A stretch of 64,000 nucleotides of DNA, from the NCBI GenBank assembly GCA_042408215.1, contig JAYFMW010000030.1:224001-288000 (forward strand), given 5' to 3'. Below, piece by piece: positions 5,458 through 57,702 of this stretch. Origin of the DNA: Microcoleus sp. Lineage in GTDB: Bacteria > Cyanobacteriota > Cyanobacteriia > Cyanobacteriales > Microcoleaceae. The position numbers and the translations under genes were made by a program. The notes beneath the pieces were generated by a model. The model was not told the DNA's origin and ran no database searches. It worked only from the letters and a program-made list of their open reading frames with translations. Each line of letters opens with the position of its first letter. The first letter of the stretch is position 1.

Positions 5458-5474
5458 TAGTAGAATGGTTTTAT

Positions 5475-5772
5475 AAAGAATACCCTGAAAACCCTGTGAC
5501 TTTAGTCCAGGGATGAAAGGGCTTTGCAGGATTTATCCTGCCAGCCCTCTTTATGCAAGACACAAACCACATTCTGTTACCAGAAAAATGTGGGATGGAT
5601 ACACAGACGCAGGTCTGGGAAGCAAATGCCTACCACAAGTAGCCATAGACTCAGCAATGGGCGAGTGGGTAGTGGGTTATTGACAAACCCTTTAAGCATC
5701 AAGATTTGGGTGGATTCATCCCCCAAAGTTTGTCCTTAAGAATCCCCGTGTCTTTAGACCGGGGAGTGTCAA
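5475..5772 (+). mobile_element. Non-autonomous IS200/IS605 mini-element (left end + omega-RNA/right end) of the 9989-11536 TnpB element
   Basis: TTTAT at 5470-5474. Left end AAAGAATACCCTGAAAACCCTGTGACTTTAGTCCAGGGATGAAAGGG and right end ...GAATCCCCGTGTCTTTAGACCGGGGAGTGTCAA match the full element. Confidence 0.92.
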
Positions 5773-5811
5773 AGATTGTCTGTCAATTTGTTGTTGAAAG
5801 GAGAATTCTAA

Positions 5812-6063
5812 ATGGCTGGCGGTTCAACTGGAGAACGTCCGTTTGGGGACATTGTTACAAGTATCCGTTATTGGGTAATTCACAGCATCACTATTCCGGC
5901 TTTGTTTATCGCTGGATGGCTGTTTGTACAGACTGGTTTGGCTTACGATGCCTTCGGCACTCCTCGCCCTAACCAGTATTTCACTCCGCAGCGGGAAGAA
6001 GTGCCGATTATCTCGGATCGCTTTGAAGCTAAGAAACAAGTAGATCAGTTCATCGGCAAGTAA
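5812..6063 (+). CDS. psbE: Cytochrome b559 alpha subunit
   Basis: [29 protein letters not shown]. Confidence 0.99.
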
Positions 6064-6084
6064 TTTAACAAGGAGTTTGAAAAA

Positions 6085-6219
6085 ATGACGGGCAGAACCC
6101 CAAACGAGCCAATTTCGTATCCGATTTTTACGGTGCGTTGGTTGGCCGTTCATACTTTAGGTGTCCCAACTATTTTCTTTTTGGGCGCGATCGCAGCAAT
6201 GCAATTTATTCAACGATAG
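6085..6219 (+). CDS. psbF: Cytochrome b559 beta subunit
   Basis: Hand translation [44 protein letters not shown]. Confidence 0.98.
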
Positions 6220-6228
6220 GAGTTTACA

Positions 6229-6351
6229 ATGCCTGAGCGCCTTCCTAATCCCAATGAGCAGCCTGTTGAGTTAAACCGGACTTCTTTGTATTTGGGTTTG
6301 TTGCTGATTTTTGTTTTGGGTATTTTGTTTTCCAGTTATTTCTTTAACTAA
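6229..6351 (+). CDS. psbL: PSII protein L
   Basis: Hand translation [40 protein letters not shown]. Confidence 0.98.
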
Positions 6352-6420
6352 CTGGTGTTTGAGTTTGCTTTCAATAGTTCGATCAAATTTATTTAGCTGT
6401 GAATTAGTGAGGTGATGGCT

Positions 6421-6540
6421 ATGTCTAGTGGTGGCAGAATTCCTTTGTGGATAGTGGGTACTGTGGCTGGCCTCGGTGCTCTGGGTATCTTGTCTCTTTT
6501 CTTTTACGGTGCTTATGCCGGTTTAGGTTCTTCTATGTAA
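6421..6540 (+). CDS. psbJ: PSII protein J
   Basis: Hand translation [39 protein letters not shown]. Confidence 0.97.
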
Positions 6541-6606
6541 GGAGAATTGGGCGTATTTTATGCCTCTAACCCCCCTGTTTCAAGGGGTTGAATTTTAGCA
6601 ATTTTG

Positions 6607-6651
6607 CTGTTAGATACCCGCAGGCTTAAAGTGCTGCGGGTATCTAACAGC
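6607..6651 (+). terminator. Long stem-loop after psbJ (terminator/3' stabiliser)
   Basis: GCTGTTAGATACCCGCAG ... CTGCGGGTATCTAACAGC inverted repeat. Confidence 0.55.
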
Positions 6652-6697
6652 GCTCTTGTCCGATCGCTTTTGAAATTAGCCAAAAGTTGTGAGTAGA

Positions 6698-6930
6698 GTC
6701 AGGAACCCCGCCCTTAAGGGACGGGGCTTGCAAGAGTAATCAAACAAGCCATTCTGACCAGCTATCGTCTTAGCTGACTACGTTATTTGAGTCAAGACAC
6801 CCGCTTGATGCGACGCTAGTCCCTTGCTCTGTCGCTGCTGGTTAAACAGTTCTAAGGTCACGCTTTACAGTGCTTTGGGCCCAACAAGCTCTTATAACAA
6901 AGGCGCGCGCGAACATTACCCGAAAGGGAC
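6698..6930 (+). ncRNA. HEARO/IscB-type omega-RNA scaffold (stand-alone, no iscB ORF)
   Basis: GTCAGGAACCCCGCCCTTAAGGGACGGGGCTTG...TGACCAGCT...CTACGTTA...GACACC..GATGC..GCTAGTC...GCTCTGTC...TTAAACAG...CAGTG...TAACA..GGCG...AACATTACC motif series. Confidence 0.85.
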
Positions 6931-7181
6931 GGTCGCAACCAGATCTCCAAAGGAGGGGCAACCATACCCCTGGGCCTCGCAAGAGGTAGGCAATTAATTT
7001 ATCGAATCAAACAAAGGCGATGCATTGAGCGAAGCCGAAGTGACGGGGTTTCAACCCTGCGCTTCGCTCCGCCCAATTTTCTGATGAATTTTCAGAATAT
7101 TCACAGGACGCTAAAGCATCCCGTGTCGCTTTTCCTCCCAGGGCTAAAGCCGCTGGGTTTCCAAGCTTCCGCGAGGTATTT
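6698..7181 (+). mobile_element. Non-autonomous IscB-family IS200/IS605 element ending directly before ATGA
   Basis: Omega-RNA at one end. Terminal hairpin TTCCTCCCAGGGCTAAAGCCGCTGGGTTTCC...GAGGTATTT at the other, followed by ATGA. Confidence 0.75.
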
Positions 7182-9434
7182 ATGACCCCACCGCAGCCGC
7201 CCCGCAAACCTCAAACCGTCTTGGGTGCTATTACCCAAGCAGTCCAGACTATTGCTAAGGTTAATTTTAACCAGCTAGTGCTGAAACCGAATGCTAAAGT
7301 ACCCGAACTGCGGGTGCAAGATGCTGGTGCTGCCACCGCTGAGGTTTATCCGCTATTGGGCGATCGATATTTGTTAGGTCGATCGTCCAAATCTTCTGAT
7401 ATTGTGGTTCGCAATCCTGTTGTCAGCCACGTACATTTATCCCTGTCGCGGGATAGTCGGCGACGAACTCCTTTTGTACTCAAAGATGAAGATTCTACTA
7501 ACGGCATTTACCAAGGAAAAAGGCGAGTAAAAAGTATCTCCCTGCGTCACGGCGACGTGTTTACATTAGGCCCGCCGGAACTCGCAGCCGCTGTCAGAAT
7601 TCAGTACGTTGATCCGCCCCCTTTGTATTCGGAAGTTTTGCGTTACAGCTTTTACGGTGTCAGCGGAATCACTGCTTTAATCGCGATGTTGATAGGCGTT
7701 GAATGCACAAAGTTTCAAGTGCGTCCTCTGCCGAGAAGTGTGAACGGGCCGGTGATTGTTTACGCTCGCGACGGTCAAACTCCCCTGCGTCCTCCTCAGA
7801 ATAACGCTCATTTGGAATTAAAGCAATTGACAGATTTTTCGCCTTATTTGGCCAAGGCGATAATTGCTTCGGAAGACAGCCGCTACAACTGGCATTTAGG
7901 GGTAGATCCGATCGGCGTTTTGCGAGCACTTTTAACTAATGTTCGCGGTGGCGGAATTCGCGAAGGCGGTAGCACTCTGACCCAGCAGTTGGCGAGGAGT
8001 TTGTTTCGAGATTATGTCGGAACTCAAGACTCGGCGGGACGCAAGTTACGGGAAGCTGTAGTTGCTTTTAAACTGGAGAGTTATTACAGTAAAGATGAGC
8101 TGTTGCTGACTTATTTGAATCGGGTGTTTTTGGGAATTGACCTTTACGGTTTTGAGGATGCGGCTCGGTTTTATTTTGGCAAGTCGGCGAAGGATTTAAC
8201 TTTGTCGGAGTCGGCGACTTTGGCGGGAATTTTGCCGGCTCCAAACAGTTTTAATCCGATTCAAAATTATCAGTTGGCGGTGCAGTATCGCGATCGGGTA
8301 ATCGAACGAATGCGGGCTATGGGGACGATTTCTCAGGAAGAAGCCGATCGCGCGAGGCGATCGCGAATTGAAATTAATCCGAAAGCTCGCGAATTTCTGC
8401 AAAGTACGATCGCTCCCTATTTCTACAGTTATGTATTTGATGAATTAGAGTTATTGCTGGGGGAGCCGTTAGCCAGAGAAGGCAATTTTATCGTAGAAAC
8501 TGGCTTAAATCCCAGCCTGCAAAAAGTAGCAGAAAGTTCCCTCAGAAATACTGTTGAAAATGCGGGAGCAAGTGCTGGCTTTTCTCAAGGAGCAGTGGTA
8601 ACTCTCAATACTGCAACCGGCGAAGTCTTAGCTTTAGTTGGCGGCGTAGATTATTTGCAAAGTCAGTTTAATCGGGCGACGCAAGCTTTGAGACAGCCCG
8701 GTTCTACCTTTAAAATTTTCACTTATACAGCAGCCCTGGAACGGGGAATCTCAGCGGGCAAAACTTATTCTTGCGCGCCGCTTTCTTGGGGCGGACAAAG
8801 TTACAGCGGCTGCGAAAGAACTAGCGGTAGTGCAGATATGTATCGGGGTTTAGCACAGTCAGAAAATGCAATTGCTTTGAGGGTAGCACAGGATGTCGGT
8901 TTAGACAATGTAGTGGGAATGGCTAGGCGTTTGGGGATTACTTCTCCCTTGCGTTCTGCCCCTGGTTTAGTATTAGGTGAAAGTGAAGTTAATGTGTTGC
9001 AATTAACGGGGGCTTTCGGGGTTTTGGCCAATCGGGGTTTGGGAAATCGTCCCCACGTAATTAAGCGAATTATTGACAGCAGCGATTGCAAAGATCGGAA
9101 TAGTTTTCAGACTTGCCGCGTGATTTATGACTATCAGAAAGATGGGGTAGCCAATCGACAGTTAGTTTCTGAAGCCGTAGCTGATACGATGACAGATATG
9201 CTGCAAGGTGTGGTGCGGGGAGGTACGGGTAGCAGTGCTGCTTTGGGGTTGGGAGAAGCTGGGAAAACTGGCACGACTAATGATAATAAAGATTTGTGGT
9301 TTGTGGGTTATATTCCGAGTCAGCAACTTGTGACTGGGGTTTGGTTGGGAAATGATGATAATTCTGCGACAGGGGGAGGTAGTGCTAATGCTGCTCAGTT
9401 GTGGGGGGATTATATGCGGCAAGTGGCGCGTTAA
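7182..9434 (+). CDS. Class A penicillin-binding protein (transglycosylase/transpeptidase) with N-terminal FHA domain
   Basis: FHA motifs LGR, VSHVH, STNG; TG motifs SEDSRY and GGSTLTQQLAR; TP motifs QPGSTFK, SEN, KTGT. Confidence 0.93.
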   Translation: MTPPQPPRKPQTVLGAITQAVQTIAKVNFNQLVLKPNAKVPELRVQDAGAATAEVYPLLGDRYLLGRSSKSSDIVVRNPVVSHVHLSLSRDSRRRTPFVLKDEDSTNGIYQGKRRVKSISLRHGDVFTLGPPELAAAVRIQYVDPPPLYSEVLRYSFYGVSGITALIAMLIGVECTKFQVRPLPRSVNGPVIVYARDGQTPLRPPQNNAHLELKQLTDFSPYLAKAIIASEDSRYNWHLGVDPIGVLRALLTNVRGGGIREGGSTLTQQLARSLFRDYVGTQDSAGRKLREAVVAFKLESYYSKDELLLTYLNRVFLGIDLYGFEDAARFYFGKSAKDLTLSESATLAGILPAPNSFNPIQNYQLAVQYRDRVIERMRAMGTISQEEADRARRSRIEINPKAREFLQSTIAPYFYSYVFDELELLLGEPLAREGNFIVETGLNPSLQKVAESSLRNTVENAGASAGFSQGAVVTLNTATGEVLALVGGVDYLQSQFNRATQALRQPGSTFKIFTYTAALERGISAGKTYSCAPLSWGGQSYSGCERTSGSADMYRGLAQSENAIALRVAQDVGLDNVVGMARRLGITSPLRSAPGLVLGESEVNVLQLTGAFGVLANRGLGNRPHVIKRIIDSSDCKDRNSFQTCRVIYDYQKDGVANRQLVSEAVADTMTDMLQGVVRGGTGSSAALGLGEAGKTGTTNDNKDLWFVGYIPSQQLVTGVWLGNDDNSATGGGSANAAQLWGDYMRQVAR

Positions 9435-9640
9435 GTCATTAGTCATTAGTCATTGGTCATTAGTCATTGGTCATTAGTCATTGGTCATTGGTCATTGGTC
9501 ATTAGTCATTGGTCATTAGTCATTAGTCATTAGTCATTGGTCATTGGTCATTGGTCATTGGTCATTTGTTACTTGTTGGTGGTTATTTGTTATGTGTTGA
9601 TGACAATAACCAAATAACAAATAACCAATGACTAATGACT
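9435..9640. repeat. STRR heptamer arrays (GTCATTA/GTCATTG; then TTATTTG/CAAATAA-type)
   Basis: Direct inspection; starts right after the PBP stop codon. Confidence 0.9.
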
Positions 9641-9650
9641 GCGGATGCAA

Positions 9651-9966
9651 TACAGCGAAAACCGCTGTTATGAGGTACACCCACTTATCGTTCAATCCTC
9701 CTAGGGACACTCCAAGAGCCCATAGGTGTCAACTTAAGCCTGAAAGCCTTGATAAATCTCGTTTTTACCTGAGTCCAGATCCCCCTAAATCCCCCTTAAG
9801 AAGGGGGACTTTGAGAAGACTCTTGTCCCCCCCTTCTTAAGGGGGGCTAGGGGGGATCTAGGCTTAATAGTCAAACAGCAGTCTCTGACTGGGTTTGACG
9901 TTAAGTTGACACCAATGGGCTCCTGGAGTGTCCCTACCGTGTTTCATAACAGCGGGAACTGCTGTA
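9651..9966. repeat. Nested palindromic MITE composite
   Basis: Concentric IR pairs: CCGCTGTTATGA/TCATAACAGCGG, TAGGGACACTCC/GGAGTGTCCCTA, GGTGTCAACTTAA/TTAAGTTGACACC, GATCCCCC/GGGGGATC. Confidence 0.8.
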
Positions 9967-9988
9967 TCTAAATTTATTCTAAAGTTTG

Positions 9989-11536
9989 TTGACACTCCCC
10001 GGTCTAAAGACACGGGGATTCTTAAGGACAAACTTTGGGGGATGAATCCGCCCAAAGTTTAATTCTCAAAGGGTTAGTCAGAAACCCCCTACCCACTCGC
10101 TCAATAATTGAGTCTATGGCTACTTTTGACTTTCTAATGATATTAGCTGCACCGTTAACATCTGCATTGATTAACAACCCAGCGCTAGAACGGTACAATC
10201 CTCTTTTGATTCTTTTACCCGATGGTTGCCAATTGTCAGGTTTTTCACCGACTTTTACTGGCAAAATGTCTCGGTCTAAAAAACTTGATTTTGATGTGTA
10301 AGATTCGTCTTGCTCTACAAATCGCCAGCCCCTTAAATCGCACTCTTGTTGGAGTCTATCTTTGACTTTAGCTGTGGGTATTTGGACAAAGTTCTGATTA
10401 GTCACTCCCCTCATATTGACTTCTTGCTTCTGTCCTTTATTCCAACCAAAGACTAAGACATTTATTTGGTTATTTTCGCAATAATCTATAATACTTCTAA
10501 CTGCTTTGTTGACAGCATCTCTCATCCTTCTAGTGCGAGTTTCTGACAACTGTTGTAATCTTTTTGACGAGAAACCTTTGGGTAATTTATGTATTGCGTG
10601 TTCTGATTGAATTCTCGCTTTTTCTTTGTTAAACCATTGGTTCCAAGACTTGAGTCTAAGTCCATCAATGATGAAAGGTTTACCATTGCTAGAGACACAA
10701 GTTAACCAGTTATTGATGCCGTGATCGATGCCCAGAACCCCTGTTACTTCCAAGCTGCAACTAGGGGCTTGTTCAGTGAGGGATTCGTGGACATATTCGA
10801 CCCATACCGCACCATTTCTAGGGATTAACCTGAGTTCTTTGATCTGGCAATTCTTGATCCGTTCAGGTAGCGGCACCCAAATCGCATCTTTCCCAAAGTA
10901 TTCTTTTCCTTTTTTCCCCAGGGGTAATCTGATTTTATTTCCAATTACCTTTAAGGCTTGACCGGGATAGGAAACGGGGTACATTCCCCCTTTGGTTCTG
11001 TACCTTGGTAGTCTCGGTTTTTGATTAATTGCTCCTTTGTTTGCCAACTTCTCTAAGGCTCGGAAAGAAGTAAAAGATTCTGCGACAGATTTAAGAGATT
11101 GTTGGGCAACTTGAGAGTATAGCAACCCGTAATTTTCGTTGGTCTTGGCTATTTTATATAAATCTGGATATTTAACTACGCTTTGGTTCTTAAAGTATTG
11201 TTGCCGACTTTCGTAAGTTCCGACATTAAACAGATTATTTGACCATCTTAGTAGTTGTTCGACAATGGTTTTGTCGAGTCCTTTTAAATGCCAAACATCT
11301 TTTTGTACTGCGTACATTTAACTTACTGGCTATTGTGACACTAGGTTTAGTATATATCGTGAATTAACAAGTTAATTAATCCTAAACAAATCTTTACCTT
11401 GGTCTCAATTGCTAGAAGAATTTGTCCGGGGACGGTTAAACATTATGTTATATTGAAACTTACGAACAGGCAGGATAAATCCTGCCACGCCCTTTCATCC
11501 CTGGACTAAAGTCACAGGGTTTTCAGGGTATTTCTT
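9989..11536 (-). mobile_element. IS200/IS605-family (IS1341-like, TnpB-only) insertion sequence
   Basis: TTTAT motif at 11541-11537, subterminal hairpins at both ends, right end ...GGGGAGTGTCAA, no TIR/TSD, contains tnpB and no intact tnpA. Confidence 0.93.
10022..11317 (-). CDS. tnpB: RNA-guided endonuclease TnpB (rearranged RuvC-II type, no zinc finger)
   Basis: RuvC-I LGIDHG; G at the canonical RuvC-II position (VLVFGWNKGQKQ) with alternative Glu in QDESYTSK; RuvC-III NADVNGAANI. Confidence 0.93.
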   Translation of the reverse strand: MYAVQKDVWHLKGLDKTIVEQLLRWSNNLFNVGTYESRQQYFKNQSVVKYPDLYKIAKTNENYGLLYSQVAQQSLKSVAESFTSFRALEKLANKGAINQKPRLPRYRTKGGMYPVSYPGQALKVIGNKIRLPLGKKGKEYFGKDAIWVPLPERIKNCQIKELRLIPRNGAVWVEYVHESLTEQAPSCSLEVTGVLGIDHGINNWLTCVSSNGKPFIIDGLRLKSWNQWFNKEKARIQSEHAIHKLPKGFSSKRLQQLSETRTRRMRDAVNKAVRSIIDYCENNQINVLVFGWNKGQKQEVNMRGVTNQNFVQIPTAKVKDRLQQECDLRGWRFVEQDESYTSKSSFLDRDILPVKVGEKPDNWQPSGKRIKRGLYRSSAGLLINADVNGAANIIRKSKVAIDSIIERVGRGFLTNPLRIKLWADSSPKVCP

Positions 11537-12289
11537 ATAAACAGGGCGGCATCCAGACAATAAACCGTGCAAATTGACGACATTACCGATGACTGCGATC
11601 GCCGGTGCTGCAAATCCAGTCGCCTCAACTTGCTCTACAATTGTAGCTAAAGTTCCGATCAATTCTTCCTGTTCTGGCCGCGTTCCCCAACGCACTAAAG
11701 CTATGGGCGTTTCAGCACTCAATCCTGCTGCTGTCAACTGGCCGATGATGTATGGTAAATTGTGAATCCCCATGTATATTACAATGGTTTCGGAGCCGTG
11801 GGCGATCGCCTGCCAATTTACCTCTGGTCGATATTTTCCTGCTGATTCGTGACCGGTAACAAAGGTAACAGAAGAACTGTACGATCGATGTGTTAAAGGA
11901 ATTCCCGCATAAGCAGGGGCTGCAATCCCAGAAGTGACACCGGGAACTACTTCTACAGAGACTCCAGCTTTGACCAAATCTTCCATTTCTTCGCCACCAC
12001 GGCCGAAGATAAACGGATCGCCGCCTTTGAGACGGACAACTATTGCATTGTCTTGAGCTTTTTCGATCAATAACTGAGTTGTTTCGTCTTGGATTAGCGA
12101 ATGCTTGCCGCGACGTTTTCCGGCATCAATTCGTTCTGCTTGGGGGTTGATTGACTCCAAAATTTGAGGGCTAACTAAAGCGTCGTAAATTACCACATCG
12201 GCACACTCTAACAGAGTTTTTCCCTTCAGTGTCATCAAACCAGGATCTCCAGGCCCCGCACCTACCAAGTAGACTTTACCAACCGACAT
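11495..12289 (-). CDS. cobA: Uroporphyrinogen-III C-methyltransferase; C-terminus replaced by IS left end
   Basis: [45 protein letters not shown] before the ATG at 12289. Confidence 0.95.
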
Positions 12290-12333
12290 TTTTACCTCTT
12301 TTTTTAGTTGTGCCTCTTGTGTGTCTTTGCGGT

Positions 12334-13095
12334 TCATTTTTGAATTAACTCCCCAATTAAGTCTGCTAATTCTACAGTTGCGCCTAGAGGATTTGCTAGA
12401 TGAATTTCTGCTGTGGGAAATTGCTGCTTTAACTGTGCGACTGTTTTGGCGATCGCATCTGTAATTCCTCCATTAAATAAGAAGTATGGCACTATTCCTA
12501 TTTGCTGCTGTCCATCACGAACTAAATTGTCAATTTGTTCTTCCAAACTCGGCTTGACCGACCAATAAGCTGTTACAGCGCCAACTTTACTAGCTATTTC
12601 TTCAACTGTCGAGTTTCCTCCCGGACGGCGGCTGCCGTGAGATAGTAAAATCCACTTTGGTGAGCGCAAATTGGGGAGAAAAGCCACCTCTTGCATCTGA
12701 GTTTTCACCAAGTTGGTTAAGCCTGCTTCTTGGGTTCCCAAATGCGGCTGCAAGTTAATTGTTAGCTTGTCAGAAAAAGTTTTCCTGGCAATTTCTAGCT
12801 GTGCGGGTATGTCTTCGGCGACGTGAACTCCCGGCAATAAAAATATGGGCAAGATTTGGACTTCTGTCAATCCGAGGGAGAGGGTATGTTCGCCAAAATG
12901 GCAAATTTGTTCGTGCAGTGGCGCGAGGCCCAACTCTAAGGTGGCGGTTCCGACTGCGGGCACAGAGGAAGTGGCAGAATTGCTCAAAATTGGTGAATTT
13001 TGAGACAGCAGTTTAGCTAGGTTTTCCAGGGCTAGTTGGGGTCGGGGGTCGCGACTGCCGTGAGAGACTAATAAATAGGTCGATCGCAATTTCAA
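12334..13095 (-). CDS. cbiX: Sirohydrochlorin chelatase (two CbiX domains)
   Basis: LVSHGSRDP, PIFLLPGVHVAEDIP, second LSHGSRR; adjacent to cobA. Confidence 0.88.
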   Translation of the reverse strand: MKLRSTYLLVSHGSRDPRPQLALENLAKLLSQNSPILSNSATSSVPAVGTATLELGLAPLHEQICHFGEHTLSLGLTEVQILPIFLLPGVHVAEDIPAQLEIARKTFSDKLTINLQPHLGTQEAGLTNLVKTQMQEVAFLPNLRSPKWILLSHGSRRPGGNSTVEEIASKVGAVTAYWSVKPSLEEQIDNLVRDGQQQIGIVPYFLFNGGITDAIAKTVAQLKQQFPTAEIHLANPLGATVELADLIGELIQK

Positions 13096-13281
13096 TATTT
13101 CAAGAGGGATGTGATGTTAATGGTCGATCAGAATTTTCAATAATTATAGCATCTTGGAGTTTCCCTGAATATTGCCGCACTCGGTTAATTTGGCTGACAT
13201 GACATCAAGGTGTCGCTGTCAGGGAGAGAGACTGACAGATCGCAGCCCAAGTTTCTCGATCGGCTTCTTGCGACTTTTTAC

Positions 13282-13311
13282 TTGACAAATAATCCCGCAG
13301 TTTGGTATAAT
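13282..13311 (+). promoter_or_regulatory. Consensus sigma70 promoter with no downstream + strand gene
   Basis: TTGACA-N18-TATAAT with extended -10 (TGG TATAAT). Confidence 0.55.
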
Positions 13312-13404
13312 TAACACCCGGACATTCAATCAAATTAAGTTCCTAATTCAAAGTCATAAATCAAGAAGTCATAGCTCAAGAAGTCATAGCTCAATCAAAA
13401 TTGA

Positions 13405-13543
13405 TATCAATTCCGGTTGCACCGTCAGGTGATGTTGACTGTTGACTGTTGGCTGTTGACGGTTGACTGTTGACGGTTGGCTGTTGACTGTTGGCTGTTG
13501 ACTGTTGATGGTTTGAACAATACCGATGCAACCGGAAACGATA
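13405..13543. mobile_element. MITE, TATCAATTCCGG-TIR family, TGA target duplication, carrying GTTGACT heptamers
   Basis: TGA|TATCAATTCCGGTTGCA...TGCAACCGGAAACGATA|TGA. Confidence 0.75.
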
Positions 13544-13643
13544 TGATGGAGAAAAATTTTCCTGGGGATTGGTGGCGATATTGGTTGTTGAAAACTGAGG
13601 AGCGGGAGTTTTTAATAAACTTAAATTGGTCGAGTTATCGCTA

Positions 13644-14588
13644 TTAATGAGAGTAGGAATAATCCGAGCTTTTGGCGAGGGAGATAGAGTTGGGACTACG
13701 AATCTTTAAAGCTGCATTGATATCTTGCAAAACTTCGACGGCGAAACTGTATCGCTGATTGATATGAACTTGCAGCAATTTATCTAAGATTTCACCTAAC
13801 TCGTTGCTAATAATTGTGCCTTTTGGGAGGTACTCGCGCCACCACCAACGCTCGCTGTTGCCGTCGTACATATCCAAGGGAGGAACTTGGGTCATCATGC
13901 GAATGCAGGTGACACCTAAACTGTAAAGGTCGCTGGCAGGAAATACTTTCCCTCGCATTTGTTCGGGAGCTAAATAATCTGGGCTGCCGATTAAAGTTGC
14001 TGGACGGAGTAGGGCTGTATCGGTGAGCACTTTAGCAATCCCGAAATCGATCAATACTGGTTTGCGATCCGACTGGCGACGGATAATATTTTCTGGTTTG
14101 ATGTCGCGGTGAACAACGTGACGATCGTGGATGAATTGCAGCACTGGCAATAAGTCTTGCAGTAGTTGCCAAATCTGATTTTCACCATATATACTCTGGT
14201 CTAATTCTTGTTTTAGAGTCGGCCCATCAATAAATTCTTCAACTAAATAAACATGGTGTTCTTCTTCAAAGCAGGCTAACAATTTGGGGATTTGCGGGTG
14301 ATTTCCGAGTTCATCTAAACGAATAGCTTCTTGCCGAAATAGATCTAGTGCTTTGCTGCATATTTCGGGATCGCGATCGTAAAAATAAAATTGCTTGACT
14401 GCACATCGGGGATGGGATGGGATGTCTTCATCGACTGCTAAGAAAGTTTTGCCAAATCCACCTCTACCTAAAAGTGCGATCGGTCGATATCGCTGTCTCA
14501 GCAAAAGATTAGATCCACAACTTAAGCAAAATTCGGCAGTGTTAAGATTTTGGGGATTTTGACATTTTGGGTTGACACAGTAGCTCAT
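13644..14588 (-). CDS. Ser/Thr protein kinase with N-terminal 4-Cys zinc ribbon
   Basis: CVNPKC..CLSCG, LGRGGFGKT, HRDIKPEN, IDFG, APE. Confidence 0.93.
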   Translation of the reverse strand: MSYCVNPKCQNPQNLNTAEFCLSCGSNLLLRQRYRPIALLGRGGFGKTFLAVDEDIPSHPRCAVKQFYFYDRDPEICSKALDLFRQEAIRLDELGNHPQIPKLLACFEEEHHVYLVEEFIDGPTLKQELDQSIYGENQIWQLLQDLLPVLQFIHDRHVVHRDIKPENIIRRQSDRKPVLIDFGIAKVLTDTALLRPATLIGSPDYLAPEQMRGKVFPASDLYSLGVTCIRMMTQVPPLDMYDGNSERWWWREYLPKGTIISNELGEILDKLLQVHINQRYSFAVEVLQDINAALKIRSPNSISLAKSSDYSYSH

Positions 14589-42413: not shown

Positions 42414-42414
42414 A

Positions 42415-45001: not shown

Positions 45002-45013
45002 TAATAGAAGTCA

Positions 45014-48487: not shown

Positions 48488-48776
48488 TTTGTATTTTTGG
48501 GGCTGGCGGGACGCCAATTGGTGTCAACTTAAACTCACTCATTTGTACTCCTCTGCTGTCTGACGATGAGTCCTTCGATCCCCCCTAGCCCACCTTAAAA
48601 ATGGGGGAACCGGAGCATTCAATGGTAAGGTGCGTCGCCCGAAACAATCTGCAAGTTTCATTTCTCATTACTCAGCGACGCACCCTACAGAGAGTGCACC
48701 TCACTTCATTCATAAAACCGCTATAAATTGTATTTTTGGGGCTGGTTCATTGGCCCACAACACAACAATTTCGCAA

Positions 48777-49514: not shown

Positions 49515-49928
49515 GGGGAATGGGGAATTGGGAATTGGGAATTGGGAATGGGGAATTGGGAATTGGGAATTGGGAATGGGGAATTGGGAATGGGGAATGG
49601 GGAATTGGGAATGGGGAATTGGGAATGGGGAATGGGGAATTGGGAATGGGGAATGGGGAATTGGGAATGGGGAATGGGGAATTGGGAATGGGGAATTGGG
49701 AATTGGGAATTGGGAATTGGGAATTGGGAATTGGGAATTGGGAATTGGGAATTGGGAATTGGGAATGGGGAATGGGGAATTGGGAATGGGGAATTGGGAA
49801 TTGGGAATTGGGAATGGGGAATTGGGAATTGGGAATTGGGAATTGGGAATTGGGAATTGGGAATTGGGAATTGGGAATTGGGAATTGGGAATTGGGAATT
49901 GGGAATTGGGAATTGGGAATTGGGAATA
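49513..49928. repeat. Long STRR heptamer array (GGGAATT/GGGAATG), ~59 units
   Basis: Direct inspection. Confidence 0.95.
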
Positions 49929-50033
49929 AAAATATCTGACTATTTATAATGTTTGTTGCATAAAATAGATTTATTTGATAACAACTTAGTTAAGATTTTC
50001 TCGTTGGATTTTTGCAGAAGTGGTGTGAGTGTT

Positions 50034-50460
50034 ATGGTTAAGAATGCAACCTCCGTTAGAGCTTTTTGGCTGTGTTTTTGGGTTTCTGGCGTGGCTGTGC
50101 TTTTGCAGCCGCGACGGCTCAATTTCAGGATAACCTAACTCCAGAAGTTCCGCTAGAAGGTGATGCTGTCTCTAGGAGTATCTCAGATGAAACGCCGCGG
50201 TTGAGGTTGAACCATCGCACTTTAGCAGAAACAGCCGAGAGTCACAGCCCCAAAAGTAACGGCGGCAATTCGTGAATTTCCCCCAAAGGAGTTAGAAACT
50301 GCAAACTCTCCTCAGTCTCAAACAGTTGCTGAAGTCGGTACAGTGCCGCCGGCGCGAATTGGCGATCGGGTTTCAGAAGGAACGTTTATATCGAGCTGCA
50401 TAAGTTGATCTAAATTGGTTTTATTTTCGATCGCCGTTGAGCCTGTACCCTAAAGCTTAC
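50034..50460 (+). pseudogene. Possible decayed 5' fragment of a secreted-protein gene
   Basis: Signal-peptide-like MVKNATSVRAFWLCFWVSGVAVLLQP continues as ATAQ.. in a shifted frame, then hits stops. Confidence 0.3.
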
Positions 50461-50702
50461 CAGAATTGCCATGTTTTTCTCAAGCCGAAGTGCTCAGGGA
50501 TAGAGATAATTTTTGGCAGTAATTTACCAGAACAAAAATTATGGTATCGATCGTTTGTCTTGGGCTTTAAATAGTTACAAATTGTAAATTATATAGCAGT
50601 TCTCAATCTTGGTGAGGTATGCCCTATGCCCTATGCCCTATGCCCTATGCCCTATGCCCTATATCAAGCGTGCACCGCACTGTTACTGAGAAAGGCTATA
50701 TG

Positions 50703-51365
50703 TCATTTATCTTGAATTATCCGGTCTAGTTCCGAAATATTATTAATAACAAACCTCGGTTGCAGCCCCAAACATTCAGTGCGATCGCCATATCCATAGG
50801 CCGCCCAACAAGCATCTATTCCAGCATTTTTAGCAAACAGCAAATCAACGGCTGTATCGCCAACCATTAAAACTTGACTGTTATCTAAATCGGGAAAAAG
50901 CGGTTTAAGAATCGAGTCAAATACAGTCGAATCAGGTTTCTGAGTGATTTCTCCGTTATCGCCTACAATTAAGTCAAAAAAACTGTGAATCTTGAATTTA
51001 TCCAAAAATAAATTGACAAAATTAACCTGTTTATTGCTGAAAACTCCAAGGCTTAATCCCGATTCGCTTGCCAACTGCAAGATGGTCTTGGTTCCGGGAA
51101 ATAGCTCTAGTTGTTTTTCACCTTCTGTGCGATAATAGGAGCGGTAAGTTTCAATCCATACAGGAATTTGGGTTTCATCGATCGCCGGAGCAAGGATTTT
51201 GAAAGTATTTGCTAAATCCATGCCGATCGTCCCTCGAATTGTAGATGACGCAGGCGGCGCGATCTGGAAATTTTCAAAAGTTTTGGTGATACAAAAGACA
51301 ATGGCTTTGTGAGTAATTGCCAAAGTGCCATCAAAGTCGAAAATAATTAACTTGTACTGACTCAT
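50703..51365 (-). CDS. HAD-family phosphatase (Gph-like)
   Basis: IFDFDGTL, FSNK, KPD, MVGDTAVD. Confidence 0.9.
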   Translation of the reverse strand: MSQYKLIIFDFDGTLAITHKAIVFCITKTFENFQIAPPASSTIRGTIGMDLANTFKILAPAIDETQIPVWIETYRSYYRTEGEKQLELFPGTKTILQLASESGLSLGVFSNKQVNFVNLFLDKFKIHSFFDLIVGDNGEITQKPDSTVFDSILKPLFPDLDNSQVLMVGDTAVDLLFAKNAGIDACWAAYGYGDRTECLGLQPRFVINNISELDRIIQDK

Positions 51366-51414
51366 ATTCCGAACCCAATCTAAAGTATAATTTTTCAGCA
51401 TTCAAGAGGTTAAC

Positions 51415-52179
51415 ATGAGTGTCACCGAAAAAACCGAATTTATAACACCAGATTTCCCAGACCACACTCAACTACCAGAATCCGACGGTACTTTTGTGAA
51501 AAACTTTCAAGAACATCCTCAAAGCATCCTGTTAACAACATCAATTAGACCCATTTTAGACCGGATTCATCCCGACGGACAATATTGCATCGGTCAAGAT
51601 TCCGGTATTTATTGGCGAGTCGCCCAACCCCCAGAACCGCCAGAAAGAGGAGCCGAAGCACCAGATTGGTTTTACGTGCCCGACGTGCCGCCAACTATCG
51701 AGGGAAATATGCGCCGTTCCTATGTAATGTGGCAAGAATTAATGCCACCTCTAATTGTACTAGAATTTGTGTCTGGAGATGGCAGCGAAAAAAGAGATAG
51801 AACTCCAAGAGAGGGCAAATTCTGGATTTACGAGCGGATAATTCGACCTGCTTTTTACGGAATTTATGAAGTAAAAAAAGCCCAAGTTGAATTGTATCAT
51901 TTGGTAGAAAATCGATTTGAGTTAGTGCGTAAAAATCAGCGCGGACATTACCAAATCGAGCAGATGGAAGTGGAATTAGGCATTTGGCAAGGGGTTTATC
52001 AGGGCGTAGAACTCCCTTGGCTACGCTGGTGGGATGCTGAGGGGAATTTGATCCAGGCCGCTGAGGAACGGGTAGAACAAGCGGAATTAGCCGCCGAACG
52101 AGAACGACAAAGGCGAATAGAAGCTGAGTTGCAAATTAAAGCTTTAGAAGCGCGTTTACGAGAGTTAGAAGGAGGGTAA
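51415..52179 (+). CDS. Uma2/DUF820 family PD-(D/E)XK protein
   Basis: LPESDG, EAPDWFYVP, PLIVLEFVS, WLRWWD, C-terminal coiled coil. Confidence 0.92.
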   Translation: MSVTEKTEFITPDFPDHTQLPESDGTFVKNFQEHPQSILLTTSIRPILDRIHPDGQYCIGQDSGIYWRVAQPPEPPERGAEAPDWFYVPDVPPTIEGNMRRSYVMWQELMPPLIVLEFVSGDGSEKRDRTPREGKFWIYERIIRPAFYGIYEVKKAQVELYHLVENRFELVRKNQRGHYQIEQMEVELGIWQGVYQGVELPWLRWWDAEGNLIQAAEERVEQAELAAERERQRRIEAELQIKALEARLRELEGG

Positions 52180-52413
52180 AATCAGTTGAGCCGATCGGCA
52201 AATATCGAGAGTCGATCGCAATTGTCAGAATCCAGAGGGCGGGTGGATTAAATTATTGGTTTTGAGGCGTAAATGGCGGGTTTTACCCGCCCAGGAGCAC
52301 ATATTCTTGCTGATTTATCCGGTTTGTAGTATGGAAATTTAAAAAAATATCACTTCTCATCCAGAAGCTGCTTATATTATTTGATAAGTATTGCATCATT
52401 TTGTGTAGAGTAT

Positions 52414-54222
52414 ATGGCACTAATTGTTCAGAAATATGGTGGTTCCTCGGTTGGTACTGTCTCGCGCATTCTTGAAGTAGCCCGACGAGTTGTAAAAACA
52501 GCACAGCTTGGCAACTCCCTAGTTGTCGTACTTTCAGCAATGGGGAAAACCACCGACGGTTTGGTTAAACTAGCTAAGGAAATTTCCGCAAATCCCAACA
52601 AGCGCGAAATGGATATGTTGCTCTCCACTGGGGAACAAGTGTCGATCGCACTTCTCAGTATGGCATTACAAGAACTCGGACAACCCGCCATATCCCTCAC
52701 AGGCGCTCAAGTTGGCATCGTCACCGAAGCCGCCCACACCCGCGCCCGGATTTTGCGGATCGATCCGACTCGGATTGAAAGCCAGCTAAACAGCGGTAAA
52801 GTCGTTGTGGTTGCGGGTTTCCAAGGCATTTCCGATGCCGAGGAAATGGAAATTACCACCTTGGGGCGAGGCGGTTCCGACACTTCAGCGGTAGCCCTAG
52901 CCGCAGCGTTGCGGGCCGACAGGTGCGAAATTTATACTGACGTGCCCGGAATTCTGACTACAGATCCGCGCCTGATTCCCGACGCCCAGTTGATGGACGA
53001 AATCACCTGCGACGAAATGCTGGAATTGGCGAGTTTGGGCGCAAAAGTCCTGCACCCCCGGGCGGTAGAAATTGCCAAAAATTACGGCGTGCCCTTGATA
53101 GTGCTGTCTAGTTGGAGTGACGCCCCCGGTACGCGGGTGGTGTCGCCCCCCCCCCAGCCACGCCCTTTGGAGGGCTTGGAGCTCGCAAAAGCGGTGGATG
53201 CGGTCGAATTTGACTTGGATCAGGCGGGGGTGTCGCTGCTGCGTTTGCCCGATCGCCCTGGAGTAGCAGCGCGGTTATTCGGTGCGATCGCCCAACAAAA
53301 TCTCGATGTAGACTTAATTATCCAGTCAATTCATGAAGGAAATACCAACGATATTGCCTTCACAGTAACGCGAAATTCTCTGCAACAAGCCGCCGCAGTT
53401 GCAGATGCCATTATTCCCACCCTCGGCAAGAATTCTCGCCCAGAATTGGGAGAACCGGAAGTGAAAACAGAAGAACGACCCATAGCTAAAGTTAGCATTG
53501 CAGGGGCGGGAATGATCGGGCGTCCGAGAGTAGCAGCCGAAATGTTTAAAACTTTAGCGGATGCGGGAATTAACATTCAAATGATTTCCACTTCCGAGGT
53601 GAAAGTTAGTTGTACGATCGATGCTACGGATTGCGATCGGGCAGTTGGCGAACTCTGCAAAACATTTGAGGTGGCCAATTCCCCTGTAGCGCTCAATTCC
53701 TCATCACCAAAACCCCCAGCAGTGCGGGCTGTAGCCCTCGATCTCAACCAAGCACGTTTAGCAATTCGCCATTTGCCCGATCGGCCCGGAGTAGCAGCAA
53801 AACTGTTCGGACTTTTAGCCGAAGAAAATATCAGCGTAGACATGATCATTCAGTCCCAGCGCTGCCACAATATTGACGGTATTTTAACTCGCGACATTGC
53901 ATTTACTGTCGCCCAAATGGATGCAGAAGCCGCTCAAACCGCCTTAGAAAAAGCAGCCCACGAGTTAGGATGGGGCGAAGTCGCAGTTGATACAGAAATT
54001 GCCAAAGTTAGCGTCGTCGGTTCCGGGATGATAGCGCATCCCGGAGTAGCCGCCAAAATGTTTGAAGCCCTTTCCCAGCACAAAATCAACATTCAAATGA
54101 TTGCAACTTCCGAGATTAAAATTAGCTGCGTTGTCGATGAAGAACAAGGCGTAATAGCTTTGCGCGCAATCCACACAGCATTTGAACTTGCCGGCACCGA
54201 AAAAATCCAAGTTCCCGCCTAA
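52414..54222 (+). CDS. lysC: Aspartate kinase (four ACT domains)
   Basis: [46 protein letters not shown]. Confidence 0.97.
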
Positions 54223-54242
54223 TACTTGTATGGCGGTTTTCG

Positions 54243-54725
54243 GTAGGGACACTCCAAGAGCCTATTAGTGTCAACTTAACGTCAAACCCTGTCATATCAA
54301 TTCCGTTTACACCGGAATGATATCATTTCGGATTTGATATATAGCAACCGCCAAGGTGGTTAAAGCATTTATGGTTATTGAACCCTTCGACTCCGCTCAG
54401 GGAGCAATGACCTTCTTCGCCTTGGCGACTGCTATACATATGTCATTGCGAGCTCAAGCGCGAAGCAATCGCAATCACTACGATATCATTCCGATGCTGC
54501 CGGAAGTGATATCACAGACTGCTGTTTAACTATTAAGCTTAGATCCCCCCTAGCCCCCAGGGCGGTTTCATTCTCAGGAAAATCGCGATTTTGTAGGGGT
54601 AGTGCTACCCCTACTCCCCGTACCCCCCCACCGACCCTCGAATGGGCGTTTGGACCATCTCGGCAACCACGGGGGGATTACCCCTACAAAGAATGAAACA
54701 GCCCGGCCCTAGCCCCCCTTAAGAA
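54243..54725. mobile_element. Russian-doll cluster of nested MITEs
   Basis: GTGTCAACTTAA-family repeat is split by a TCA-flanked TATCAATTCCG element (54295-54511), which contains a TATAGCAACCGCCAAG/CTTGGCGACTGCTATA element (54340-54436). A CAGGGCGGTTTCATTC/GAATGAAACAGCCC element follows. Confidence 0.8.
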
Positions 54726-54759
54726 GATTGGAATTATGCAGTTTTATGAGCAGCTAAAA

Positions 54760-55783
54760 AGTCGATTAAAATCCCCACTCTCGGAACATTTCGGCTAAAA
54801 GCATCAACACCATTCCCCTGCGTAGCACAGACATTCACTATTTAACGCACAGCAGATAAATGGTATATTTCCTTCGCAATCAAAGCCGAAAAGATGCCAC
54901 CGCTTTTCCATCTAGTTGCTGAACCCATAGGGATTGATATCAATTCCGGTTGTATCGGAATTAATCTTACCCGAAATCAGGACACGGCTTGGCCTTAGTC
55001 CCTACCGCGATCAATTGTAGGGACTAAGGCCAAGCCGTGTCCTCTATATCATTCCGGCGCAGCCGGAATTGATATGACTTAGGAGTATCAACTTTTGCTA
55101 CTATTTCCGATGGTAAGTTTTATGAGTCTCCCCGTCCACTGAAAAAAGCGAAAACCAAGCTGAGTAAAGAACAGTGGAGAAATCGGCAACAGCAATTAGG
55201 TAATAGAAACTTAGGTTTAAGAGGATATAATAATGCTCATAAACACTATCGTATAATCGCTAAAATTCACGCGAAAACAGCTAATTAACGGCGAGATTTT
55301 TTGCCAAGAACTACGACAAAAATTAGCTAGAAATATGCCCACATTCGCATCGAAGTTTTGAAGGTGAGCGAGATGGTTGCTAACCATAAGTTAGCAGCAG
55401 CTATTTCAGATTGTGGTTGCTCTGAATTTCGTCGTCAATTGGAATATAAGTCGGAAATGTATAGCACGAAAGTTGAGCTTTAGGGACACGGCGTGCCTTG
55501 TCCGTACTAAATAGATGGTTTCCTGCTTCTAAAACCTGTTTAAACTGCGGTCATACTCAACCGATGCCATTAAAAGAACGAGTTTTTGATTGTGGCTGTT
55601 GCGCTCTATTAATCAATCGAGATTTGAACGTCGCAATCAATTTATCTCGTTACTCAGAATTAGTAAGACCGGCTCGGTCGCTCCGTTACACCTGCGGACA
55701 AGCAGGAGCCGACTCCCTTGGTAGATGCAGTTCGAGAACATCAAATCTGCCATAGGTAGGTTTGAGTAGATTTCATAGAACGG
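54760..55783 (+). pseudogene. tnpB: Decayed IS607-type tnpB with right end
   Basis: Pieces KIPTLGTFRLK, ADKWYISF, GI/DLG (split by a MITE), RRDFL, ISDCG.SEFRRQLEYK, RWFPASKTCLNCG..CGCC..NRDLNVAINL; stops and frameshifts; ends GTAGATTTCATAGAACGG. Confidence 0.85.
54938..55074. mobile_element. TATCAATTCCGG-TIR MITE with TGA target duplication, inserted in the tnpB RuvC-I codons
   Basis: GGGAT-TGA|TATCAATTCCGG...CCGGAATTGATA|TGA-CTTAGGA; removal restores GGG ATT GAC TTA GGA (GIDLG). Confidence 0.85.
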
Positions 55784-55878
55784 ATCGGGGTCTTTTGTTT
55801 TGCAGAAAGTCGATCGCCCATCAGATCAAATCCGCGCTTCATCGTCCTGGTCAAGTCGAGTCAAGTCGCAACCATATA

Positions 55879-56094
55879 TATAGCAACCGCCAAGATGGTT
55901 AGGAAACTTCGACTGCGCGAGCATGCATCGCATTTTTGGTGATTGAGCCCAACGGCTGCGTTGATCCAGAGCGTAGTCGAAGGACTCAGGATCAACTCCG
56001 TCGAAATGTCCGGTTTCTGAGTGCTTTTCGACCGAGTTTATCCGCTCGCGGAGCCGAAGGGCTCAATCACCTAAGCGCCTTGGCGACTGCTATA
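55879..56094. mobile_element. TATAGCAACCGCCAAG/CTTGGCGACTGCTATA MITE (TA-flanked)
   Basis: Same termini as 54340-54436. Confidence 0.75.
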
Positions 56095-56596
56095 TCGAAG
56101 ATATATCAGCGCAATTTTCAGTTTTTCGACTCACTGTCAACCGTCAACTGTCAACTGTCAACAATCATCTCCAAGAGTGCAACCGGAATCGAGATCACCG
56201 TATTTACACCGAGAATCTGCGGTGAGTGGGTGAAGTGGTGAGGGGGTAGAGGGGGGATTTATGAGACATCGCGATCGCTCAACCCCTATAAAACACGGCA
56301 TTTTTAGCCATAATTGCCCAAATAAACAACTCATGCCCGATCGGAGTCCAAGTAGCTGAATCAACAAAAATCATGTTCTTCAGAATTTCCTCATATTTTT
56401 TAGCTAACGTTTAGTTCAAGGTCTTGAATTCGAGGTCGATCGTCGTTAGCAGCATCCCCCTGCTCAAGAACGAACCTGTCGTCAGGGGAGTGAGGGTGAG
56501 GGATTCTACTTTGAATTGACGACTGCGACAGCATTGCCACCTTCAGGTAAAGCCAAGTCTGAGTATTTATTGTTAAAGAGTGTGGAGATTTTTGAA

Positions 56597-56926
56597 ATGT
56601 CTAATCAGCTATCTTCTCAAGGTAACAGCCTGATTCTGTGCTATTACGCAAATGTTTCCCACCAAATTCAGGTGGTTCGGATTGGGAACATTCCGAATTG
56701 GTATTTTGAAAGGGTGATGTTTCCGGGACAGCGACTGATGTTTCAATCCTGGCCAGAAGCAGTATTAGAAATTCATACGGGTGCGGTAGCAAGTGCTATT
56801 TTATCAGACAAGATTCCTTGCTACGTGCTGCGGGTCATAGAAGAGATCAATGCTGATGAAGTACAAGATGAGGCAGAAGATGACGTAGAAGTTAGGGCCG
56901 TGGAGCAATATCCAGTCTGCGCCTGA
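56597..56926 (+). CDS. DUF1830 family protein
   Basis: ILCYYAN....IQVVRI.NIPNWYFERVMFPGQRLMF...EAVLEIH. Confidence 0.85.
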   Translation: MSNQLSSQGNSLILCYYANVSHQIQVVRIGNIPNWYFERVMFPGQRLMFQSWPEAVLEIHTGAVASAILSDKIPCYVLRVIEEINADEVQDEAEDDVEVRAVEQYPVCA

Positions 56927-56994
56927 TCGGATTAAATAGACATCTCTCATCGACTCAAGCAAGCACAAAAATATTAGTTAATTAATGTTTCAGG

Positions 56995-57354
56995 ATGGAA
57001 AAAATGCCTAAAACTCTTGTCAATATTACCTTATCTGTAGTCACGGAGGAAGTAGAAATTATCTTGGAGTCTTACCCCAGATATCCCTATCAAGAAGCTT
57101 TTTCACCTTCGGGCTTACGACAGGATTTAATTGCTTACGTGCTGAGCCGCGTTCCTAATACTTATAGTGCGATCGAAGCGTCTGAGTCTGCATCGAACCA
57201 AACAGTCCAGGTTCGCTGTTCCTCAGAGCAGTTGCTGCACATAGAAAACTTGATTCACACAGGAATTCGCGACGTGCTGTATAGCTATCACAAGATCGAC
57301 TACCTCGTTCCTGAAACAGTTAGATTCGGGGCGAGAGTTTCTAGTTGGTCGTGA
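56995..57354 (+). CDS. ComFB-like (late competence development) domain protein
   Basis: LVNITL..V.EEVE, QDLIAYVLSRVPNTY. Confidence 0.6.
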   Translation: MEKMPKTLVNITLSVVTEEVEIILESYPRYPYQEAFSPSGLRQDLIAYVLSRVPNTYSAIEASESASNQTVQVRCSSEQLLHIENLIHTGIRDVLYSYHKIDYLVPETVRFGARVSSWS

Positions 57355-57407
57355 TAGTTGGTCGGGCATCAGGGGAGGTTAACCAAGCCTAGACCAAGGG
57401 GATTTAT

Positions 57408-57702
57408 AAGAAATACCCTGAAAACCCTGTGACTTTAGTCCAGGGATGAAAGGGCGTGGCAGGATTTATCCTGCCTGCCCCATCTTGACAAACTGATTTT
57501 GGTTTGATAAAGTTGTTGAAACTTAGTTGGTGAAAAACCCGACAGTTGCAAGCCGTTAGGCACAAAAGTAGCCATAGACTCAGCCACTCGCTGTGTGGGT
57601 AGTGGGTATCTGACTTACCCTTTAAGAATTAAACTTTGGGCGGATTCATCCCCCAATGTTTGTCCTTAAGAATCCCCGCGTCTTCAGACCGGGGAGTGTC
57701 AA
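57408..57702 (+). mobile_element. Non-autonomous IS200/IS605 mini-element of the 9989-11536 family, with internal promoter
   Basis: TTTAT at 57403-57407; left end identical to the full element; TTGACA-N17-TAAAGT at 57485-57513; omega-RNA/right end ...GACCGGGGAGTGTCAA. Confidence 0.92.

Follow-up and report, generated by a model that had tools for sequence, protein, structure and literature searches.

We analyzed a 64,000-nucleotide stretch of the genome of the cyanobacterium Microcoleus sp. (hereafter the window; C30:224001-288000, contig JAYFMW010000030.1 of the 7.36-Mb, 30-contig assembly GCA_042408215.1) and found one full-length mobile element encoding TnpB and two short copies, or minis, that have lost tnpB and kept both element ends and a whole omega-RNA-type scaffold. 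The element is a member of the IS200/IS605 family that carries tnpB alone (IS1341-like), with derivatives that resemble palindrome-associated transposable elements (PATEs) or MITEs (miniature inverted-repeat transposable elements). This placement follows from the subterminal hairpins, from insertion 3′ of a short motif without target duplication, and from OrfB/TnpB being the sole open reading frame (ORF). We observe the anatomy of the elements, their copy numbers, their insertion rule, their recent mobility, and RNA-type structural conservation directly, and we consider it likely, with some reserve, that the minis are bound in trans by TnpB for homing or retention at their own donor joints. 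The idea that such minis supply guides in trans was put forward in a first-pass annotation of the window; it is plausible and is partly backed by anatomy and by comparative structure.

The full-length element lies on the minus strand at 9989..11536 (1548 bp) and is preceded by TTTAT at 11537-11541 (read on the minus strand), which would be its target-adjacent motif (TAM). Its left end (11462..11536, minus strand) contains the hairpin CCCTG-T-GAC-TTTA-GTC-CAGGG and a second hairpin, GGCAGGA/TCCTGCC; this left end folds as DNA with z = -4.2 and has 68 matches in the genome. The tnpB ORF of 431 amino acids (10022..11317, minus strand) is identified by Pfam, alignment, and fold. A 137-nt omega-RNA-type scaffold (9989..10125, minus strand; covariance-model match of 173 bits, fold z = -3.8) overlaps the last 104 nt of tnpB, including the stop codon, and terminates at the right end of the element. 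With the scaffold running up to the right end, a guide would be taken from the sequence 3′ of the element, and from this anatomy the predicted guide of the long copy is CAAACTTTAGAATAAATTTA (9969..9988, minus strand).

Both minis lie on the plus strand. In the family A mini (298 bp, 5475..5772, TAM at 5470-5474), a middle of 83 nt that is specific to the family (5550-5632) lies between the left end and the scaffold (5636-5772), and the predicted guide of this mini, AGATTGTCTGTCAATTTGTT (5773..5792, plus strand), is psbE leader sequence. The family B mini (295 bp, 57408..57702, TAM at 57403-57407) has the same three-part build, its own family-specific middle being 87 nt long (57480-57566) and its scaffold lying at 57566-57702, with the predicted guide ACCTAGCTAGTTACCTGAGC (57703..57722, plus strand). 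The middle of mini B also contains a sigma-70-like promoter, by consensus match only (57485..57513, plus strand; TTGACA, 17 nt, TG-TAAAGT), that agrees with the consensus at 10 of 12 positions, is directed to the scaffold, and lies about 50 nt 5′ of it. The two minis thus have about 75 nt on the left and about 137 nt on the right in common, and their middles are wholly different. A covariance model of the right-end segment gave exactly three matches in the window (173, 171, and 160 bits), and all three elements have TTTAT before them and GGGGAGTGTCAA at their end. The first-pass annotation had placed the three elements and their ends exactly, had predicted three guides that are identical to the 20-mers of the 3′ flanks, and had rightly described minis without a protein gene that share a left end and a conserved scaffold (about 135 nt there, about 137 nt here) around differing middles.

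Genome-wide, the family is much larger. A blastn search of the whole genome, for which the queries were the left end (75 nt) and the right end (143 nt), yielded 68 left-end and 72 right-end matches, which define 62 bounded elements and leave 10 right ends and 6 left ends unpaired. Half of the bounded copies are long (31 copies, 1446-1616 bp) and half are short (31 copies, 289-481 bp), the latter comprising 16 family B minis (289-295 bp, including 57408-57702), 14 family A minis (298-299 bp, including 5475-5772), and one 481-bp family A variant with an insertion. That variant (C23:21447-21927) has about 180 extra bases after its left end and is preceded by CTGAT rather than TTAT. The left ends of the short copies are 92-100% identical to that of the long copy. 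Among the 31 long copies, the longest frame has 430-434 amino acids in 14, 446 in one, 405-413 in 10, where the C-terminal frame differs, and 351 or fewer in 6; intact-looking TnpB genes of the same family are therefore present elsewhere in the genome. The earlier description of a single TnpB holds inside the window and fails for the genome, where 31 long copies include 14 with a tnpB frame of 430-434 amino acids; with 31 long and 31 short copies, a genome-wide count does not bear out the picture of one nuclease with a few extra cassettes. Likewise, TTTAT precedes the three window elements and is not the genome rule: it is found at 37 of 62 copies, whereas TTAT precedes 60 of 62, and the terminus GTCAA is present in all 62. 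TTAT is thus the insertion motif and the expected TAM.

The scaffold has the conservation pattern of a structured RNA. The three 137-nt scaffolds of the window adopt the same four-stem fold (z = -3.8, -2.8, and -3.7 against shuffles), and each has its own sequence in the apical part of the first stem and nonetheless forms a hairpin there. The scaffold model matches 140 of 144 genomes of the taxonomic family (E ≤ 0.001). In an alignment of 51 sequences, made up of 48 loci from relatives and the source genome plus the three window loci, standard pairs account for 95.0% of cells, and compensatory, two-sided changes are seen at 21 of 38 pairs; in slid controls, where the 3′ partner was moved by 1-3 columns, 35-63% of cells are paired and 6-10 pairs show such changes. 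Stem variants of helix 3 are visible independently of any alignment (GGGTT/AACCC, GGGTA/TACCC, GGCGC/GCGCC, AGCGC/GCGCT, GGCTG/CAGCC, GGTCG/CGACC, and GGCAT/ATGCC). The hairpin variants reported from the window by the first-pass annotation (GGGTTTCTGACTAACCC, GGGTTATTGACAAACCC, and GGGTATCTGACTTACCC) are real, the U-A/A-U swap being present as UA in 13 and AU in 11 of 24 source-genome copies, and the covariation reported there persists in the larger alignment. Among these 24 copies, 10 of 76 paired columns are variable versus 24 of 61 unpaired columns, the structure having been taken from the same alignment.

The proposed pseudoknot is a separate matter. The loop TGAC is indeed complementary to the terminal GTCA, and both partners are nearly invariant (TGAC in 46 and GTCA in 47 of 51 sequences), with few changes and none that are compensatory. 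Because of this near-invariance, covariation is uninformative about the pseudoknot, and since the terminal TCAA/GTCAA is also the cleavage site, its conservation needs no role in an RNA. No Rfam family reached its gathering score on the scaffold. Under relaxed settings the top-scoring family was the archaeal non-coding RNA HgcC (window 9980-10089, minus strand), which was rejected, as its 17.8 bits (E = 0.046) lie far under the cut-off of 50 and do not amount to membership.

The ends and the insertion sites show that the family is mobile. As single-stranded DNA, the left end folds into the hairpin given above and the right end into CCCCG-T-GTC-TTTA-GAC-CGGGG, so that one architecture is found at both ends, and these subterminal hairpins stand in place of terminal inverted repeats. 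In the closest relative, G041, the locus of the long copy is a precise empty site, TTTAT followed by CAAAGTGTAG, with nothing duplicated; it reads CCTGTTTAT joined directly to CAAAGTGTAGAATAAATTTAG. The long element is also missing beside the left flank in 7 of 7 relatives' loci examined, and the long copy of the window is a recent, precise insertion. It sits at the extreme 3′ end of a tetrapyrrole methylase gene (window 11495-12337, minus strand), whose ORF now extends 14 codons into the left end of the element; at the G041 empty site the protein would end PVYQSVE. Of the relatives' ycf48-psbE loci examined, 5 of 5 are without mini A, and its insertion is specific to the source genome. The insertion of mini B is common to the two closest relatives only (G040 and G041), whose contigs break inside it.

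A Y1 transposase would be expected to move such elements, and the genome has 20 matches to PF01797 (Y1). Within the copies themselves, Y1_Tnp is represented by just a 22-bit fragment in one 1616-bp copy. A pattern search for the hairpins returned 122 sites, 118 of them in known copies, and none of the 4 others is near a Y1 gene. At C20:491166-499615, two inverted family B minis of equal identity values flank Y1 transposase matches, one of them broken, at a distance of about 8 kb from each other.

By its conserved residues, the TnpB of the window would be a nuclease with a shifted RuvC-II glutamate. The 431-amino-acid ORF matches Pfam OrfB_IS605 (PF01385, 3.1e-18) and Cas12f1-like_TNB (PF07282, 4.8e-06), and its closest named relatives, from Kamptonema and Microcoleus, are annotated as TnpB or transposase. 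Across TnpB and 18 homologues, down to 47% identity, D198 (GIDHG), E338 (EESYTSK), and D386 (NADxNGAANI) are invariant (19/19). The canonical RuvC-II position is occupied by a glycine (FGWNKGQK), with the invariant glutamate E338 47 residues downstream, and zinc-finger cysteines are absent from TnpB in the alignment of 19 homologues. With phmmer, no PDB sequence resembled the TnpB at E ≤ 0.001 (0 matches). An AlphaFold2 model (mean predicted local distance difference test score of 77), searched with Foldseek, matched Cas12f, ISFba1 TnpB, ISDra2 TnpB, and Fanzor2 at E = 6e-17 to 1e-9. As modeled, then, the protein has the Cas12f/TnpB fold with a shifted RuvC-II glutamate and without zinc-finger cysteines, and by its motifs it would belong to the rearranged RuvC-II class, which has already been described. 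We also considered a nuclease-dead regulator of the TldR type, which does not fit the conserved catalytic residues or the copies, which are mobile and polymorphic.

What the minis might guide TnpB to is best judged from the guides themselves. For all 62 copies, the 16 nt that begin the 3′ flank were compared with the genome, allowing up to 2 mismatches. The 62 guides all differ, and each one is sequence flanking the copy to which it belongs. For none of the 62 did the genome yield an exact second-site target (TTAT plus guide); the nearest second site is a TTTAT site for one long-copy guide, with 1 mismatch, and the guide of mini B is unique in the genome at this setting. In a collection of viral contigs, none of the three window guides had an exact match. 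The first-pass annotation had seen in the elements a candidate network in which minis give one TnpB several guides, and as a dedicated multi-target system it is not supported by these searches. A host-level version of that idea, with TnpB and many guides acting beyond donor joints in defense or gene control, could draw on the many distinct guides, on the position of mini A in the psbE leader, where its guide matches the leader of an essential photosynthesis operon, and on the precedent of TnpB-derived regulators (TldR). We hold it to be very improbable, given that every guide is the flank of its own copy, that the best second site in the genome carries a mismatch, that 0 of 3 window guides match viral contigs, that the catalytic residues are conserved, unlike in TldRs, and that the elements are polymorphic and mobile, not fixed. 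Because the guides are the elements' own flanks and no exact second-site target was found for them, the published role of TnpB in homing or retention fits better than a multi-target network.

A homing mechanism for these elements would run as follows. Elements insert precisely 3′ of TTAT without target duplication, and would move as single-stranded DNA, presumably by a Y1 TnpA encoded elsewhere that recognizes the matching left and right subterminal hairpins. Long copies encode a TnpB that falls in the rearranged RuvC-II class; the omega-RNA scaffold would be formed by the final ~137 nt of these copies and the guide by the first ~16-20 nt of the right flank. The minis have lost tnpB and kept both ends and the whole scaffold, with a promoter-like site added in family B, and their transcripts would be bound in trans by TnpB from long copies. 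Such an RNA of scaffold and guide, about 150-160 nt, would begin at AAGUAGCC and extend 16-20 nt past GUCAA. When a mini excises, the complex would cut the TTAT-plus-flank donor joint left behind, and recombination with the sister chromosome would then restore the mini, so that minis would exploit both TnpA and TnpB. We infer transcription, binding of TnpB in trans, cleavage, and movement by a TnpA encoded elsewhere from the sequence.

Several findings weigh against this reading. On the side of mobility, none of the 20 Y1 matches lies in or beside an element copy, and the empty site of mini A in relatives reads TGATAG or TAATAG, not TTTTAT; the junction in these 5 relatives has 4 differences within 8 nt, the remaining flank being 91-97% identical. 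On the side of the protein, TnpB has a glycine in place of the canonical RuvC-II glutamate. As for the RNA, the pair counts from the 51 sequences come from a model-fitted alignment, which favors structure, and among source-genome copies only 1 of 38 pairs, the UA/AU swap counted above, shows a two-sided change. The scaffolds of the minis are 84-92% identical to that of the window long copy, and with a mini scaffold as query the best long copies reach about 91% identity; compatibility with TnpB is assumed. We found no promoter-like site inside mini A that is its own. The orientation of minis relative to their upstream genes is even (16 on the same strand and 15 on the opposite strand), and likewise for long copies; dependence on read-through from upstream genes, which we had considered, thus finds no support. 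Both family middles are confined to minis within the source genome, and of the 79 genomes of the genus, 5 carry the middle of family B and 3 that of family A, counts that fragmented assemblies may depress. Judged by this distribution, the mini families are young and have expanded in the source lineage, so conservation of the scaffold within a family could reflect recency and not selection.

These points raise the alternative that the minis are plain MITEs that depend on TnpA, in which the scaffold is kept for DNA-level reasons, as an extended right end on single-stranded DNA, or simply because the families are young, and in which any RNA made is not used by TnpB. Their recent, lineage-restricted spread and the near lack of two-sided changes among within-genome copies agree with this, as do two features of the right end: scaffold helix 6 doubles as the TnpA-type right-end hairpin, and the invariant GTCAA is the cleavage site too. 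We nevertheless regard this alternative as unlikely. Helices 2-5, which lie outside the right-end hairpin, covary across the 51 sequences, and the promoter-like site in mini B is aimed at the scaffold. Unrelated as their middles are, both mini families retain the scaffold from one and the same 5′ base (AAGTAGCC) onward, without extra tnpB sequence, and a third, scaffold-only derivative in other genomes begins at that base as well, which speaks against plain MITEs. A DNA-level origin of the shared boundary could lie in TCAA, the right-end cleavage tetranucleotide, which in 11 of 12 long-copy rows of alignment A2 ends directly before AAGTAGCC (e.g. window 10126-10131, minus strand). The small size of the right end needed by TnpA also speaks against an extended end; in IS608, reportedly, only about 40-50 nt are required.

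The minis could also act chiefly as mobile promoter or leader modules that alter the expression of neighboring genes, with the scaffold as a passenger, an idea that is compatible with trans binding by TnpB. The sigma-70-like site of family B reads outward, and mini A is located in the ycf48-psbE spacer, which has 56 nt in relatives, 40 nt before the psbE ATG, so that transcription of psbEFLJ would have to cross mini A or start in it. The nearest downstream ORF of at least 120 amino acids shares the strand of the mini in 12 of 14 family A cases versus 4 of 16 family B cases, by crude ORF calls and in small numbers; the family with the lower same-strand share is the one with the promoter-like site. 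This contrast may be chance, and the -10 hexamer of family B differs between copies (TAAAGT, TCAAGT, and TCGAGT). As the chief role of the minis, we judge expression of neighbors to be quite improbable, and homing or retention by TnpB in trans continues to be the reading that we prefer.

A further scaffold lies outside the window. Of the 20 divergent model matches fetched from other species, 11 have one and the same 3′ flank, CAGCATGGAATTCCATGCAA, and no tnpB frame upstream. This scaffold-only copy has no left end, and CAGCATGGAATTCCATGCAA stands downstream of it as a fixed sequence. In order, the locus has a divergent small ORF, conserved non-coding sequence in which CCATCAGGG is repeated five times, a scaffold of 146 nt that ends in GTCAG, then a palindrome and a terminator-like hairpin (represented by L069:1851-2352, minus strand, and 30 orthologues). 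The orthologous locus has the scaffold in 64 of 79 genomes of the genus; 14 genomes, including the source genome (C29:118955, within the scaffold-free counterpart C29:118853-119159), are without exactly the 146-nt scaffold, and 1 has no locus match. In 13 genomes the TnpB clade of the window is without a match at E ≤ 1e-50, and each of them has the scaffold locus. In the 31 orthologues, 91.9% of cells are paired and 12 of 38 pairs have two-sided changes by the model-fitted alignment; an independent MAFFT/RNAalifold alignment of the same sequences gives 3 of 41 pairs, and in it CUGAC pairs with GUCAG in 31 of 31.

The fixed locus may be a relic within a conserved transcript or a domesticated RNA derived from an omega-RNA. 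That protein-less scaffolds can become long-lived functional RNAs, here a domesticated RNA with a fixed sequence at the guide position that acts with TnpB in trans or independently of it, is a tentative suggestion from the comparison of genomes and one that we find doubtful. Such an RNA would then have its candidate targets at TTAT-type sites with CAGCATGGAATTCC after them. PsrR1 was rejected as the identity of the RNA that lies downstream (21.9 bits against a cut-off of 42, with equally weak matches elsewhere in the genome and in non-cyanobacterial controls).

The genome also contains RNAs of the IscB type. In the window, a match to HEARO (the IscB omega-RNA, RF02033) at 6698-6919 (plus strand, 109 bits) has no adjoining iscB, the next ORF encoding a penicillin-binding protein, and there are 70 HEARO matches in the genome, 64 of them above the gathering score. 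Tail-to-tail pairs with HEARO elements also occur: at two places (C1:90669-91208 and C26:114344-114887) a family A mini ends 20-22 nt from the 5′ end of a HEARO on the same strand, a spacing at which the TnpB-type and IscB-type RNAs would share guide bases.

Taken as a whole, what was noticed in the window is real and well outside what chance would give, and the element, though very successful, is an ordinary TnpB element of the IS200/IS605 family. Trans use of stand-alone omega-RNAs has already been published, and the inference of the first-pass annotation restates that idea for a new family. Since the concept is not new, the value of the family lies in providing a clean test system, not a new principle. 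If the minis load TnpB in trans, this would be an unusually balanced natural case, with 31 nuclease-bearing and 31 RNA-only copies, and non-autonomous elements would be exploiting their parent's transposase as well as its retention nuclease. The genome could be used to test the homing model for PATEs and to characterize a TnpB clade that lacks the zinc finger and whose catalytic glutamate is shifted. What might reach past the published record is the fixed scaffold-only locus in relatives.

The nearest precedent for the minis is the set of protein-less, PATE-like elements carrying omega-RNAs in Geobacillus stearothermophilus, as presented by Meers et al. 2023 (10.1101/2023.03.14.532601). Like those PATEs as described there, the minis have no protein gene, share their ends with tnpB elements, occur in many copies per genome, and have kept the omega-RNA. 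Unlike them, they are found in another phylum and with another TnpB clade (rearranged RuvC-II, no zinc finger), and they form two families with distinct middles, one of which has a promoter-like site, at a copy number equal to that of the long elements (31/31). Stand-alone omega-RNAs used in trans by OMEGA (obligate mobile element-guided activity) effectors were reported by Altae-Tran 2021, as cited in PMC10691335. The minis resemble these, so far as that citation describes them, in being mobilized omega-RNA loci without an effector or transposase beside effector-bearing loci, a likeness known here from sequence alone.

The TnpB itself can be compared with the rearranged RuvC-II clades of Altae-Tran 2023 (PMC10691335), e.g. 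RIIr-5, in which the glutamate is changed to glycine, is compensated by another glutamate, and activity is predicted; a "shifted glutamate" TnpB clade is named in 10.1101/2023.08.09.552727 as well. The window TnpB has the same glycine at the canonical glutamate (FGWNKGQK), a glutamate 47 residues on (EESYTSK), and NADxN in the RuvC-III region. According to the account in PMC10691335, zinc fingers were lost in some branches only, and the window TnpB differs from these clades in general by having no C4 zinc finger; it is likened to them by motifs.

ISDra2 and IS608 provide the remaining comparisons. The layout is that of ISDra2: a scaffold that shares sequence with the 3′ end of tnpB and stops at the element's right end, and a guide that lies in the flank. 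The ISDra2 TAM is TTGAT. The present family differs from ISDra2 by its TAM, TTAT, and by a TnpB that has no similarity to PDB chains detectable by phmmer, a shifted glutamate, and no zinc-finger cysteines. Where the ISDra2 pseudoknot, in the structure of Nakagawa 2023 (PMC10097598), pairs nucleotides -5 to -3, immediately 5′ of the guide, with -103 to -105, GUCA at -5 to -2 of our scaffold might pair with UGAC in the loop, some 90 nt upstream, a similar geometry. Finally, the window element has no tnpA within it, unlike IS608, and yet it shows the features of IS608 and IS200/IS605 peel-and-paste transposition as generally outlined: subterminal imperfect hairpins, insertion 3′ of a tetranucleotide without duplication, and a right-end cut after TCAA.

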